Positions 2,285 through 8,592 of a stretch of DNA of 64,000 nucleotides are shown in pieces. The DNA lies in the NCBI GenBank assembly GCA_963790305.1, contig CAWBOC010000005.1:384001-448000 (forward strand). The letters are read 5' to 3'. The notes beneath the pieces were generated by a model that worked only from the letters and a program-made list of their open reading frames with translations, did not search any database and was not told where the DNA came from. The position numbers and the translations under genes were made by a program. Position 1 is the stretch's first letter; each line of letters starts with the position of its first letter. This DNA is from an uncultured Gemmatimonadaceae bacterium. GTDB taxonomy: Bacteria > Gemmatimonadota > Gemmatimonadetes > Gemmatimonadales > Gemmatimonadaceae.

Positions 2285-2447
2285 AGGCGCTGGCGTACTT
2301 CGAAGGCAGTTGAACGGTGAGGCGCTTGCGCCCCTTCTTTCGACGACGACTCAGTGTTTCCCTCCCCCATCGCGTCGACATACGCGTGCGAAACCCGTGG
2401 GTTTTCACGCGCCGCTTGTTACGGGGGCGGTAGGTAGGCTTACCCAT
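2283..2447 (-). CDS. rpmH: 50S ribosomal protein L34
   Basis: [46 protein letters not shown] upstream of ATG 2447. Confidence 0.98.
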
Positions 2448-2488
2448 GGAATCTCCAACCTTCAGGTAACGGCGACTAGAGAACCGTA

Positions 2489-2517
2489 AACCTAGCCTCG
2501 ACAGCAAGATACGTCAA
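2489..2517 (-). promoter_or_regulatory. sigma70-type promoter of rpmH operon
   Basis: TTGACG-N17-TAGGTT on minus strand, about 40 nt upstream of rpmH. Confidence 0.7.
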
Positions 2518-2548
2518 GCAGCCTCTACACTCATCTGTACAGAGATCG

Positions 2549-2602
2549 TTGACATTTCCACATTCAAGCCGTAGCTTCGGCGCCCCTCGCCACTTTTCCA
2601 CA
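2549..2602 (+). promoter_or_regulatory. sigma70-type dnaA promoter with DnaA boxes
   Basis: TTGACA(2549-54)-N17-TAGCTT(2572-77); DnaA boxes ATTTCCACA 2554-2562 (1 mismatch) and TTTTCCACA 2594-2602 (matches TTWTNCACA). Confidence 0.8.
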
Positions 2603-2608
2603 TCAAAA

Positions 2609-3997
2609 ATGTCACTGGCTCCCTCTGACGTCTGGACCCGCCTCCTAGACCAGGCGCGACGGCAACTTCCAGAGCAGGTAATCCGAACCTGGCTCGAGCC
2701 CTCTGAAGCACTAAAGGTCGAAGGCAATACGCTATTCATCGGTGTGCCAGATCGTTTTGCGGCAGACTGGAATGAGTCAAAGCACGGGCCACTGCTAGCT
2801 TCGCTAGCACCTGTAGCGCTCGGTCATCCGCTCAACGTGGTATTCCGCGTCCATGATGAGCAGAAGACGCGACCCCAGATGGATTTCTTTGTCGCGCCCC
2901 TGCCAGAGAAGGGATTAGCCACCGATGTACTCGCCGCTCCAAACAGTCAGTTAAGTGGGCGGTATACCTTCGATAACTTCGTGATCGGAAAGTCTAACGA
3001 GCTAGCTGCCGCAGCTGCCCAAGCAGTAGCAGAGGCTCCGGGAAAGGTCTACAACCCACTTTTCATCTACGGACAGACAGGCCTGGGAAAGACACATCTC
3101 ATGCAGGCTGTAGCCCATGACATTCTCCAGCGGAATCCACGAACCCGGTTAGCCTTCATCGGTACTGAACAGTTTACCAATGAGCTAGTCGGCTCGATCC
3201 AAGGCCGTACTACACAGGAGTTTAGGCGGCGCTACCGCGAGATTGACCTGCTCCTTGTCGACGACATTCACTTCCTCAAAGGGAAGGAAGCCACCCAAGA
3301 GGAGTTCTTTCACACTTTCAACGCCCTCTACGAAGCCGGCCGCCAGATCATCTTGACCAGCGATCGCCCGCCATCGGAGATCGCGGGTCTCGAAGCACGG
3401 CTTGTAAGCCGCTTCCAGTGGGGAATGGTAGCCGACATTGAGCAGCCTGACCTTGAGCACAGGACAGCAATCCTGAAGAACAAGGCAGCCCTGGACCATC
3501 TTGAGCTCACAATTCCCGATGACGTCATCGGATTCATCGCCGAAAATGTTCGCTCAAGTGTCCGAGAGCTTGAAGGCTCAATAATCCGGCTCCTCGCCTA
3601 CGCTTCCCTCAGACACCGGGAAATAACCGTTGAACTAGCCAGAGAAGCGTTACGAGACAAGCTTAAAAACGGAGATCAAGCGGCAGATCTACAGGACGTA
3701 GGAATATCAGTACCAACTATTCAGAGCATTGTGGCAAAGGAATGGGGAGTAACCACTGAGGGCCTACGTTCTAAGGTAAGAACAAAGACACTTACCGTCC
3801 CTCGACAGGTCGCAATGTTCCTCATACGAGAACTCCTCGGCTTACAGCTCGTAGAAATAGGCTTGGCATTTGGAGGCCGAGATCATTCCACCGTGATCCA
3901 CAGCCTCGATCGGGTTCAAGAGGAGCTAAAATCAAACCCAGCCTTCCAGTCTCGAGTACAGCACCTACGCCACCAATTAGAACTAACAAGACACTAA
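2609..3997 (+). CDS. dnaA: chromosomal replication initiator DnaA
   Basis: YTFDNFV, NPLFIYGQTGLGKTHL, LLVDDIHF, RELEG, FGGRDHSTV; ATG 2609 chosen downstream of the promoter. Confidence 0.99.
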   Translation: MSLAPSDVWTRLLDQARRQLPEQVIRTWLEPSEALKVEGNTLFIGVPDRFAADWNESKHGPLLASLAPVALGHPLNVVFRVHDEQKTRPQMDFFVAPLPEKGLATDVLAAPNSQLSGRYTFDNFVIGKSNELAAAAAQAVAEAPGKVYNPLFIYGQTGLGKTHLMQAVAHDILQRNPRTRLAFIGTEQFTNELVGSIQGRTTQEFRRRYREIDLLLVDDIHFLKGKEATQEEFFHTFNALYEAGRQIILTSDRPPSEIAGLEARLVSRFQWGMVADIEQPDLEHRTAILKNKAALDHLELTIPDDVIGFIAENVRSSVRELEGSIIRLLAYASLRHREITVELAREALRDKLKNGDQAADLQDVGISVPTIQSIVAKEWGVTTEGLRSKVRTKTLTVPRQVAMFLIRELLGLQLVEIGLAFGGRDHSTVIHSLDRVQEELKSNPAFQSRVQHLRHQLELTRH

Positions 3998-4215
3998 ATA
4001 AAGCAGCCCTGTTAATAAGCAGACCAGCACTGGATTGCCCTCATCTACTAACACTCCCCCTCATACATTCAACATATACTACCATCACGTAACTAAATCA
4101 GATATCGTAGCTTCCAGAGCTCTTCCACAAGTACACAGTCTCTATTGCTACTACTAGCTGTCTTTTAAATAGAGAAGTACTAGAGCAACCCCCCTCAACT
4201 CCTCACGGAGCTGGA
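3998..4215. other. oriC: chromosomal replication origin oriC (dnaA-dnaN intergenic)
   Basis: AT-rich; DnaA-box-like TGTTAATAA 4010-18; tandem TCTTCCACA 4121-29 / AAGTACACA 4129-37, then DnaA-trio-like CTA TTG CTA CTA CTA 4142-56 and an AT-rich tract; strand composition switches across it. Confidence 0.85.
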
Positions 4216-5328
4216 ATGCGTTTCACGATCACTCGAGAGAAACTTCAGGAAGGGCTTAGTGCAGTTACAGCAAGCATTCCAGCCAAGACTACCCTTCCTG
4301 TCTTGGCTAATCTTTTAGTTGAGACGACAGAGCGAGGAATCCGCCTGTCGGGAACAGATCTCGATATAGCAGTGAGCACTGAGGTAGTAGCAGATGTGGA
4401 TGGCCAGGGTGCTATTACGATACCAGCGAAAAAGCTGGCTGAGATAGCTCGTGAGCTACCGTCCGCTCCAGTACGGGTATCGGCTACTGGAGAGCAGCGG
4501 GTGACACTCGAGTGTGGCAAGACCCGATTTCGTCTCCTTGGGTTACCAAAAGATGAATTCCCAAGCTTTCCATCTGTTCGGTTTTCAGAGAGCTGGCGAG
4601 TACGTTCAGGAGATCTGCAGAAGCTGATTTCTCATACAGCCTTTGCTGCTTCAACAGAGGAAAGTCGGCCAATCCTAAATGGTGTCCTTTGGGAAATGCG
4701 CCCAGGCCATATGCGTATGGTCGCAACTAACGGTCACCGTTTAGCCAAAATCGAGTTGCCTCTGGAGTCAGTTGGAGCTCCATCAGCAGATTTGATTGTG
4801 CCACCTAAGGCACTGGAGCAGATTCGCCGTCTTTTTGCTGCCGAGGAAGATCTTGAAATTGCACGGGGTGATAACCACCTAGGATTTCGATCTCCATTTA
4901 CCGCAGTTTTTACGCGGTTGATTGAGGGACCATATCCGAACTACGAGCAGGTCATTCCACGAGATAACGAACGCGTAGCTATAGCCGACCGAAATGCATT
5001 GTTCCAGGCGCTAAAGCGCATGTCGATTATTGCTTCCGACCAGACACATCGCATTCGATTGGCGTTCAACAGCGGTATGGTAAAGTTCAGTGTTCAGACG
5101 CCAGATCTTGGTGAGGCGCAAGATGAGCTGTCGGTGAGCTATGAGGGGGATCCGTTGGAGATTGGCTTCAATGCTAGCTATTTGCTCGAAATTCTCCGCT
5201 ATATGCCAACCGACGAGGTGCGGCTGACATTCAAGGCACCAGAACGTGCTGCCACGGTTGAGCCTATGGGGTGGAATGATCCGGCAAAGTATTTGTGTCT
5301 CGTTATGCCGCTTCGCCTTGTTGACTGA
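4216..5328 (+). CDS. dnaN: DNA polymerase III beta sliding clamp
   Basis: SGTDLD, ATNGHRLA, RLIEGPYPNY, IGFNASYL, VMPLRL. Confidence 0.99.
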   Translation: MRFTITREKLQEGLSAVTASIPAKTTLPVLANLLVETTERGIRLSGTDLDIAVSTEVVADVDGQGAITIPAKKLAEIARELPSAPVRVSATGEQRVTLECGKTRFRLLGLPKDEFPSFPSVRFSESWRVRSGDLQKLISHTAFAASTEESRPILNGVLWEMRPGHMRMVATNGHRLAKIELPLESVGAPSADLIVPPKALEQIRRLFAAEEDLEIARGDNHLGFRSPFTAVFTRLIEGPYPNYEQVIPRDNERVAIADRNALFQALKRMSIIASDQTHRIRLAFNSGMVKFSVQTPDLGEAQDELSVSYEGDPLEIGFNASYLLEILRYMPTDEVRLTFKAPERAATVEPMGWNDPAKYLCLVMPLRLVD

Positions 5329-6268: not shown

Positions 6269-6645
6269 GTGCAGCCTGTAAGCCGGGTTCTGTCGGACAA
6301 TTGCTTGTCCGGACGGTCATTCCTCTTGGGGTACGATCGCTCGGACCCTCTAGCAGCCTACCCGCGGTGTCTTAGTCGGGGCGGAACCACCCCTCACCGC
6401 CTATTCGGCCTTGCTCCAGCCGGGGTTTACCCTGCCACATGTGTTACCACACGTGCGGTGAGCTCTTACCTCGCCGTTTCACCCTTGCCTGAGCCAGCGA
6501 TGAAGCTGGCCATCGGCGGTCTATTCTCTGTGGCACTTTCCGTCGTCTCACGACGCCCAGACGTTATCTGGCGGCTCGTCCTATGGAGCCCGGACTTTCC
6601 TCGGCGCCTACGGATGTCGCAGTTGCCGCGACCGTCCAGCTGCAC
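6269..6645 (-). ncRNA. rnpB: RNase P RNA (type A)
   Basis: Minus strand has GAGGAAAGTCCGGGCTC, GAAAGTGCCACAGAGAA, GGTAAACCCC, ACAGAACCCGGCTTA; ends pair (GTGCAGC...GCTGCAC). Confidence 0.98.
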
Positions 6646-6651
6646 GACTGA

Positions 6652-6681
6652 AGTATAATCGTATTCCTGACCACATTCCAA
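6652..6681 (-). promoter_or_regulatory. rnpB promoter
   Basis: TTGGAA-N18-TATACT ending 6 nt before the rnpB 5' end. Confidence 0.65.
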
Positions 6682-7704: not shown

Positions 7705-8592
7705 ATGATCTCGATGACAACTCGGCAAAGCCTGACGCCTGTTGCTACGGTCCTTCTTCCTCCGGAGCGTCTCCGGGTAGATGCTGCCGGCGAGGGCCTG
7801 TATCGCACACTCCATCGCGACTCGCTTGAGGACGCTATGCATGACCTCAAGGCGCGCCGAGCACACGCGATAGTTATCTCCGTTGCCTGCTGCAGTGGTC
7901 CTGAAGCTACGAAGGTTGCGCAACTTGTCCGGGAATTTCCTCGGGTTCCAGCAGTTGCTCTGTTGACGCAAGTGGAGCCATCAACACCACGCGATGTCCT
8001 TTACCTCGGCCGTTCGGGTCTCCAGACACTCATTGATGTTCGGTCAGCCGGAGGCTGGCGAGAGTTACGAGAAGCTCTCGTTGCCGAGCGAGGGGCGAGT
8101 GTCGAGAGGCTTGCGCTTGGCCAATTAGCCCTGGATCTCACCGGCGTGGCGCCAGACTGCTGGCGGTTCTTCGAGGCACTGTTCGGGCCTAATGCGCGCA
8201 TAACGACAGTGCGAACGCTTGCCGCGCATCTCCAGGTGCTTCCGAGTACCCTGATGAGCCGTTTCTTTCGTGCTCGCCTTCCTGCTCCCAAACGCTATCT
8301 GGCAACTGCACGCCTGGTTCGCGCGGCGCATCTTTTTGAGAATCCTGGCCTGTCGGTCGCGAGTGTCGCGAACGTCCTCGACTATTCCTCACCACAGAGC
8401 TTCGGCCGACATGTACGAACAATGCTGCACCTGACTGCTGTCGAATTCCGTCGGCGATATACCGGGCAGCGAATGCTTGATCACTTTCGCGAGCAATTGG
8501 TGATTCCACACCTCCCCACACTTCGGCTCTTCGCGCCCCTGACGCCGCCACCAGGCTGGTTAGCGCCGCAGCTGCCGAGCGATGTCATGTGA
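7705..8592 (+). CDS. AraC-family transcriptional regulator
   Basis: C-terminal AraC HTH (ARLVRAAHLF...SVASVANVLDYSSPQSFGRH...LTAVEFRR); receiver-like N-terminus; GAGGA RBS. Confidence 0.9.
   Translation: MISMTTRQSLTPVATVLLPPERLRVDAAGEGLYRTLHRDSLEDAMHDLKARRAHAIVISVACCSGPEATKVAQLVREFPRVPAVALLTQVEPSTPRDVLYLGRSGLQTLIDVRSAGGWRELREALVAERGASVERLALGQLALDLTGVAPDCWRFFEALFGPNARITTVRTLAAHLQVLPSTLMSRFFRARLPAPKRYLATARLVRAAHLFENPGLSVASVANVLDYSSPQSFGRHVRTMLHLTAVEFRRRYTGQRMLDHFREQLVIPHLPTLRLFAPLTPPPGWLAPQLPSDVM

Follow-up and report, generated by a model that had tools for sequence, protein, structure and literature searches.

A clamp-binding-type pentapeptide in the DnaA linker of Gemmatimonadales and its predicted docking on the sliding clamp

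The window analyzed here is a stretch of 64,000 nucleotides from an uncultured Gemmatimonadaceae bacterium (contig CAWBOC010000005.1, positions 384,001 to 448,000), near the start of which lies the usual origin region, with the gene order yidC-rnpA-dnaA-dnaN. The dnaA gene (2609-3997, forward strand, start ATG at 2609) encodes a canonical four-part protein of 462 aa, which passes as a chromosomal initiator by its domain I, AAA+ domain III, and helix-turn-helix (HTH) domain IV and by the rpmH-dnaA-dnaN layout; the closest solved structures to the protein are DnaAs. Domain I (residues 1-81, 2609-2851) is delimited by AlphaFold secondary structure and a Pfam DnaA_N match (7-66), domain III (2951-3658) by a Bac_DnaA match (116-275) and invariant residues, and the DNA-binding domain IV (3716-3916) by a Bac_DnaA_C match (370-436), all on the forward strand. 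Walker A K161/T162, Walker B D218/D219, D252, R264, R268, and R319 are invariant in 124/124 unique DnaA proteins of the order, and by correspondence with E. coli DnaA we take the last four of these to be sensor I, box VII, the arginine finger, and sensor II. Downstream, dnaN (4216-5328, forward strand) encodes a β sliding clamp of 370 aa with three clamp domains in Pfam.

The dnaA-dnaN spacer contains a likely origin-unwinding element (4121-4170, no strand assigned), where CCACA-type boxes, CTA repeats, and an AT-rich tract occur together. We infer that its CTACTACTA trinucleotide repeat (4148-4156) represents DnaA-trios. A strict (YTA)3 repeat is found in 60 of 171 dnaA-dnaN spacers, with looser forms in most rows, whether the DnaA motif described below is present or absent. 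A few genes from the origin, we also observe an AraC-type HTH protein (7705-8592, forward strand; Pfam HTH_18 at 172-251) with an unannotated N-terminal part. A spurious ORF at 6269-6658 looks like an RNase P RNA gene read in antisense.

Between domains I and III, bases 2876-2890 of the forward strand read CAG ATG GAT TTC TTT and encode QMDFF at DnaA residues 90-94, bearing out the sequence-only reading, which had singled out this pentapeptide as being of the clamp-binding type. It is enclosed by a conserved patch, R88-x-QMDFF-V95-A96-P97 (2870-2899; R in 120/124, V in 115/124, A in 109/124, and P in 112/124), which is followed by the variable rest of the domain II linker (residues 98-114, 2900-2950). 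At the same position in DnaA, Q[MI]D[FLM]F occurs in all 135 Gemmatimonadales loci (L001-L030 and L035-L139, redundant ones counted; 131 + 3 + 1 readings). The 131 extracted loci yield the 124 unique proteins, among which we count QMDFF in 61, QMDLF in 56, QMDMF in 6, and QIDLF in 1. As 80 loci came from a search partly seeded with the motif itself, we note that it is present in 53/53 loci extracted from whole-genome searches without a motif seed; DnaA protein matches have QMD[FL]F in 119/120 and QMVFF in the remaining one. Across the 124 unique proteins, which extend down to 60% identity, column entropy is 0.26 bits for residues 90-94 and 0.59 for 95-97, versus a mean of 2.92 for 98-114; domains I and III have values of 1.02 and 0.56, respectively. 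The earlier expectation of a motif conserved in an otherwise divergent linker is thus confirmed within the order, and it is chiefly because of this conservation that we count QMDFF as more than a chance match.

The codons of the motif (CAG in 94 and CAA in 30, GAC in 71 and GAT in 53, TTC in 95 and TTT in 29) follow the same usage as the rest of the gene, and M91 is encoded by ATG in 123/124, with ATC (Ile) also occurring. Because silent positions vary freely, selection appears to act on the peptide rather than on the DNA, and we conclude from these alignments that QMDFF is a real peptide that is strongly selected at the protein level. Any reading of the motif as a by-product of a DNA or RNA element or of an internal start is excluded by the free silent sites and the Ile variants. 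Together with a merely chance likeness or neutral inheritance, such explanations seem to us hardly credible: the near-invariant ATG at M91 speaks for them, whereas substitutions have saturated the adjacent linker, and a search of window positions 2300-4250 yielded no promoter- or terminator-like site.

QMDFF fits the Q-aliphatic-x-L/M/F-F pattern of pentapeptide clamp motifs. A loose pattern, Q[LMIV]x[LFM][FW], has 43 matches in a crude set of ORFs from the same genome that totals 1.30 million residues, and from this background it is expected about 0.001 times in a 33-residue linker; it arises in 946 of 200,000 shuffles of the linker's own residues. A tighter pattern has 23 genome matches, and of the 13 other proteins that were annotated, 7 have no DNA link or no family. 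Its carriers include DnaE (QVSLF), a DinB-type polymerase (QLALF), RecO, and a Uma2 nuclease-like protein, as well as two radical-SAM proteins, each with a W-ending motif and one of them with HhH. As unrelated proteins are also hit, the pattern by itself is not specific. Clamp-motif-like peptides observed in this survey include the W-ending ones in the two adjacent radical-SAM proteins (G000:C7:247577-249591), that in RecO (G000:C6:48136-48894), and one at the C-terminus of a 572-aa ORF near dnaE with no Pfam match (G000:C9:539018-540733).

A comparison with DnaE is more informative on what is constrained. In the internal clamp motif of DnaE from 21 Gemmatimonadales, Q, L, and F are kept in 21/21 and positions 2 and 3 vary, and DnaE sequences of a second family discussed below (f10) carry QMGLF, QMGLF, QMSLF, and QIGLF. 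The DnaA motif has anchors 1 and 5 in common with DnaE and additionally fixes M (123/124), D (124/124), and the flanks. This extra constraint, as seen in the alignments, fits either a tighter or longer clamp interface or a second partner. The substitutions in DnaA (L/F/M at position 4, M/I at position 2) stay inside the QphiXLF grammar described for clamp motifs (10.64898/2026.05.27.728225, PMC11139829). According to PMC11139829, binding is favored by D at position 3 and a large aliphatic residue at position 2, whereas a Phe in position 4 or a Trp in position 5 weakened it in E. coli tests. In 10.64898/2026.05.27.728225, QLSFF is described as binding both tested clamps 1.5-3-fold more weakly than QLSLF, and QMGLF as a weak binder.

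We modeled this DnaA with AlphaFold from an alignment of 46 rows, drawn from 93 non-redundant rows of motif-bearing families only. The last strand of domain I spans residues 76-81, and residues 85-112 have a pLDDT under 50. The strand end at 81 and the low pLDDT that follows place QMDFF in the linker, outside domain I, so that its burial in domain I, a concern raised with the original proposal, is ruled out by this model. The monomer model also has no intramolecular packing of QMDFF, which is predicted to be exposed in a disordered stretch. When DnaN (68-row alignment) was modeled with DnaA residues 76-112, the complex scored 0.66 (0.71, 0.66, and 0.60 in the individual runs), versus 0.00 for the best of three controls, none of which was motif-scrambled; among 157 solved complexes, 116 attain the mark for this score, as do 2 of 215 mismatched pairs. 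At least 82% of contacts are shared between the runs, with a partner pLDDT of at least 48.

In the model, DnaA residues 87-94 contact DnaN residues 171, 173-174, 176, 241, 243, 246, 277, 279, 319, 343, 345, 362, and 364-367, matching the cleft described for Hda in PMC5397184 (G174, M362). The pocket residues T171, G173, H174, L176, P241, V246, N319, M364, and P365 are invariant in 68/68 DnaN sequences. The cleft is invariant in all groups, with changes at its rim in f10 alone (A345G, L362V, and R367K, 6/6), which we regard as a single clade-level event and from which we draw no inference. Because clamp-peptide structures have already been solved, the score may reflect likeness to such complexes. 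As had been proposed, the motif docks in the DnaN pocket in this model, and we consider it quite probable that DnaA binds the clamp directly through QMDFF.

Beyond the order, we read DnaA in 60 genomes that represent the phylum's nine other families. In f10, which belongs to another class (40-45% identity), Q[MI][DEN]LW lies right after domain I in 11/11, and the pentapeptide is absent from all 49 loci of the remaining eight families (f4-f9, f11, and f12). Conservation across the phylum, as first envisaged, therefore stands for the Gemmatimonadales and f10, but a phylum-wide motif is excluded by the other eight families. A FastTree phylogeny built from DnaA domains III-IV and DnaN (65 loci with both genes, midpoint root only) recovers the Gemmatimonadales as one clade (1.0), while f10, f11, and f12 group with a support of 0.978, so that f10 is not sister to the Gemmatimonadales. 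The consequence of this placement is that the motif was either gained twice or lost several times. One f11 protein is labeled by its source as Candidatus Glassbacteria. At the equivalent linker position, we observed by eye conserved Q-less elements in f6 (RL[DE]FPE[IL]; L142-L167) and f7 (IPx[VL]E[VL]; L149-L193), which could be a degenerate clamp site or perhaps an older site for another partner.

A profile search with domain I and the motif against 1.84 billion representatives found the pentapeptide in 26 of the 96 readable linkers among the best 150 matches. All 26 resemble Gemmatimonadales or f10 by sequence, and no third pentapeptide lineage appears among these best 150. A DNA pattern for QLxLF before the start of domain III, searched in metagenomes in one spacing window, gave nine stretches and no true motif: two are not DnaA, four are DnaA without an in-frame motif, and three correspond to the last strand of domain I. 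Through a false match of this pattern, we came upon Acidiferrales-labeled DnaA sequences (P0396-P0515; L248:1291-2598, forward strand), a narrow sample that is 78-100% identical. In 119/119 read, from 120 fetched, these have a hexapeptide-like Q[AST][KR]LDF late in the linker, where 12 residues separate it from domain III and the pLDDT is under 50. A Bacteroidota-labeled group (P0267, P0273-P0391), reached via the distant match P0267, shows hexapeptides of the Q[LI]D[LM][DE]Y type some 8 residues past domain I in 49/120, with Q in 65/120 and often P instead. New in this survey are a second motif lineage (f10), the controls, and hexapeptide-like candidates in Acidiferrales and Bacteroidota DnaA.

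To our knowledge, both known clamp-coupled routes of initiation control depend on an adaptor, either Hda or YabA. Over the respective cut-offs, Hda (TIGR03420) is found in 0/121 phylum genomes and YabA (PF06156) in 0/81, with no YabA in the genome studied here (94% complete). Control genomes were positive as expected in both searches, and the tallies include the unpublished G084 and G123, neither of which alone carries any claim. This DnaA itself scores 118.2 bits against the Hda family, for which the cut-off is 194.8, and in each of 15 genomes of motif-bearing families, the single Hda/DnaA-type match is DnaA itself. The absence of hda and yabA that the sequence-only reading had suggested looking for is thus observed, but families that lack the motif are also without both, so that the motif-bearing lineages are not singled out by it. 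For the same reason, adaptor absence leaves room for a role of the motif and is no proof of one, and the idea that the motif replaces Hda, as judged by an anti-correlation between the two, is unsupported.

Separately, a protein in which two DnaA-type AAA+ domains occur without a domain I (G000:C9:48256-50170, reverse strand; L217:8257-10171) is widespread in the order. It is split by a frameshift in this assembly and accounts for most of the extra Hda/DnaA-type matches elsewhere. Its neighbors are genes for an MglA-like GTPase/Roadblock pair (MglA/MglB), a DUF4388-TPR protein, CheR, CheD, and CheB. We considered this paralogue as a hidden Hda and rejected it as a required partner, as it resides in a motility/chemotaxis cluster, has no Q-motif before the first AAA+ domain, and finds no counterpart in the 15 genomes of motif-bearing families, where a second match is lacking.

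With a confidence that falls a little short of even, we propose that DNA-loaded clamps capture DnaA via the linker peptide and thereby damp re-initiation without an Hda or YabA adaptor. The starting point is the peptide, which is present, under protein-level selection, and located in a stretch that is unfolded in the model, and which is predicted to bind the canonical DnaN cleft. Since clamps would build up on DNA only during replication, this binding would act as a replication-coupled signal. Capture by the clamp would then take DnaA off oriC in a YabA-like manner, and it may favor a head-to-tail DnaA-DnaA contact on DNA, in a manner like that of Hda and of DDAH, in which the arginine finger of one DnaA would lead to ATP hydrolysis in the next. 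The invariant R268 and R319 are relevant to this scheme and would be expected in every DnaA anyway. There are precedents for each mode: YabA and DnaN remove DnaA from oriC (PMC13220808), and in RIDA, a clamp-bound DnaA-type AAA+ domain supplies the arginine finger to ATP-DnaA, while DDAH, a precedent for hydrolysis driven by contact between DnaA molecules, requires R285, R281, and R334 (both as described in PMC5742627). Given clamp binding, we find a negative-feedback role fairly likely, and as its mode we place titration slightly ahead of ATP hydrolysis.

Several observations count against clamp capture. Hda depends on an additional clamp interface, and its motif immediately precedes the AAA+ domain (PMC5397184), whereas about 21 residues intervene here, and the F at position 4 and W at position 5 seen among DnaA motifs are of the kind that weakens binding (PMC11139829). 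The motif also fixes positions 2 and 3 and its flanks, unlike that of DnaE, and the adaptors are missing from motif-less families as well. Part of this evidence bears equally on a rather unlikely alternative, in which the peptide is a short linear site for another partner and resembles a clamp motif partly by coincidence. Such a partner might be the helicase, a helicase loader, a regulator that acts through domain I, a protease adaptor, or a neighboring DnaA. A site of this kind would account for a peptide that is more fixed than a clamp anchor requires and for the Q-less hydrophobic-acidic elements at the same place in f6, f7, and f12, those of f6 and f7 also weighing against clamp capture itself. 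The Q found in only 65/120 of the Bacteroidota-labeled group and the suggestion that domain II helps to recruit the helicase (PMC5448010) point the same way. Another partner does not readily explain, however, why Q is invariant in two separate clades (124/124 and 11/11) in a 1-2-4-5 pattern that is that of a clamp motif, nor why the model puts the peptide in the clamp pocket with low expected error and leaves it unpacked in the monomer.

If the clamp is bound, the role may instead be positive, with the clamp brought to the opened origin and replisome assembly helped. We judge this to be quite unlikely, although it rests on the same binding evidence as negative feedback and has a precedent in TrfA, whose QLSLF (134-138) binds the clamp and whose N-terminal region is important for replisome assembly (PMC8034659). 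The chromosomal DnaA-clamp links reviewed in the accessible part of PMC13220808 are all negative. The origin-unwinding element, moreover, looks alike by eye in motif-bearing and motif-less families, so that no special origin accompanies the motif. An improbable variant is that DnaA, once bound to the clamp, is targeted for degradation coupled to replication, or that spent ADP-DnaA is parked there, with no direct effect on ATP hydrolysis or oriC occupancy. Eukaryotic PCNA-coupled degrons offer an analogy for degradation, and the exposure of the motif in a linker modeled as disordered would suit either fate.

Should binding hold, capture of DnaA by the clamp would be a new variant of clamp-coupled initiation control, and a clamp motif borne by DnaA itself is a candidate mechanism for lineages with neither Hda nor YabA. 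If docking holds, DnaA likely could sense ongoing replication without adaptors of the E. coli or Bacillus type, and domain II, which is described as an unstructured linker with few known motifs (PMC5448010), would gain a defined function. A more far-reaching reading, which we think unlikely, is that lineages without Hda and YabA independently acquired a linker clamp motif and that clamp-bound DnaA serves as its own Hda. These lineages would be the Gemmatimonadales and f10, with the pentapeptide, and the Acidiferrales and the Bacteroidota group, with hexapeptide-like motifs. If true, this would add a third way of coupling initiation control to replication, one that is adaptor-free, and provide a living model of the kind of motif-bearing DnaA that could give rise to an Hda by duplication and loss of domain I. 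In the literature searched, we found no report of a clamp motif in a chromosomal DnaA, though the original motif surveys and supplements may list DnaA matches, and the accessible portions of PMC11139829 and 10.64898/2026.05.27.728225 do not name DnaA as a clamp partner.

Compared with the QL[S/D]LF motifs of DnaE, PolC, DinB/PolY, and MutS, the DnaA motif is similar in having Q at position 1, an aliphatic residue at 2, D at 3, a hydrophobic residue at 4, and F at 5 in a disordered stretch, and differs in its use of less favored residues, F or M at position 4 and W at position 5. The closest parallel to the arrangement is Hda in RIDA of E. coli (PMC5397184, PMC5742627, PMC13691371), where a clamp motif likewise precedes an AAA+ domain of the DnaA type that bears an arginine finger, and the same DnaN cleft is predicted to be used by this DnaA. 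Hda is, however, described as a separate ADP-binding protein that has no domain I, contacts the clamp through a second interface (box VI/VII), and carries a hexapeptide (QLSLPL, 6-11) immediately ahead of the AAA+ domain, whereas here a pentapeptide lies within a full initiator, with domain I present and about 21 residues before domain III. The tethering of YabA to DnaN in B. subtilis (PMC13220808) is alike in coupling DnaA to the clamp and taking it off oriC, but the YabA bridge is required there, and no YabA is found over the cut-off in 81 genomes here. In DDAH, DnaA arrayed on DNA is described as stimulating ATP hydrolysis in a neighboring DnaA, as the clamp might allow here, although the scaffold there is a DNA locus with IHF rather than a clamp. 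IncA of Caulobacter, which also binds DnaN, was dismissed as a relevant parallel, as it is an ATPase of the clamp-loader clade. Finally, TrfA of plasmid RK2 is, like this DnaA, a replication initiator with its own clamp pentapeptide (QLSLF), although it is a plasmid Rep protein rather than an AAA+ chromosomal initiator and the role described for it is in replisome assembly (PMC8034659).
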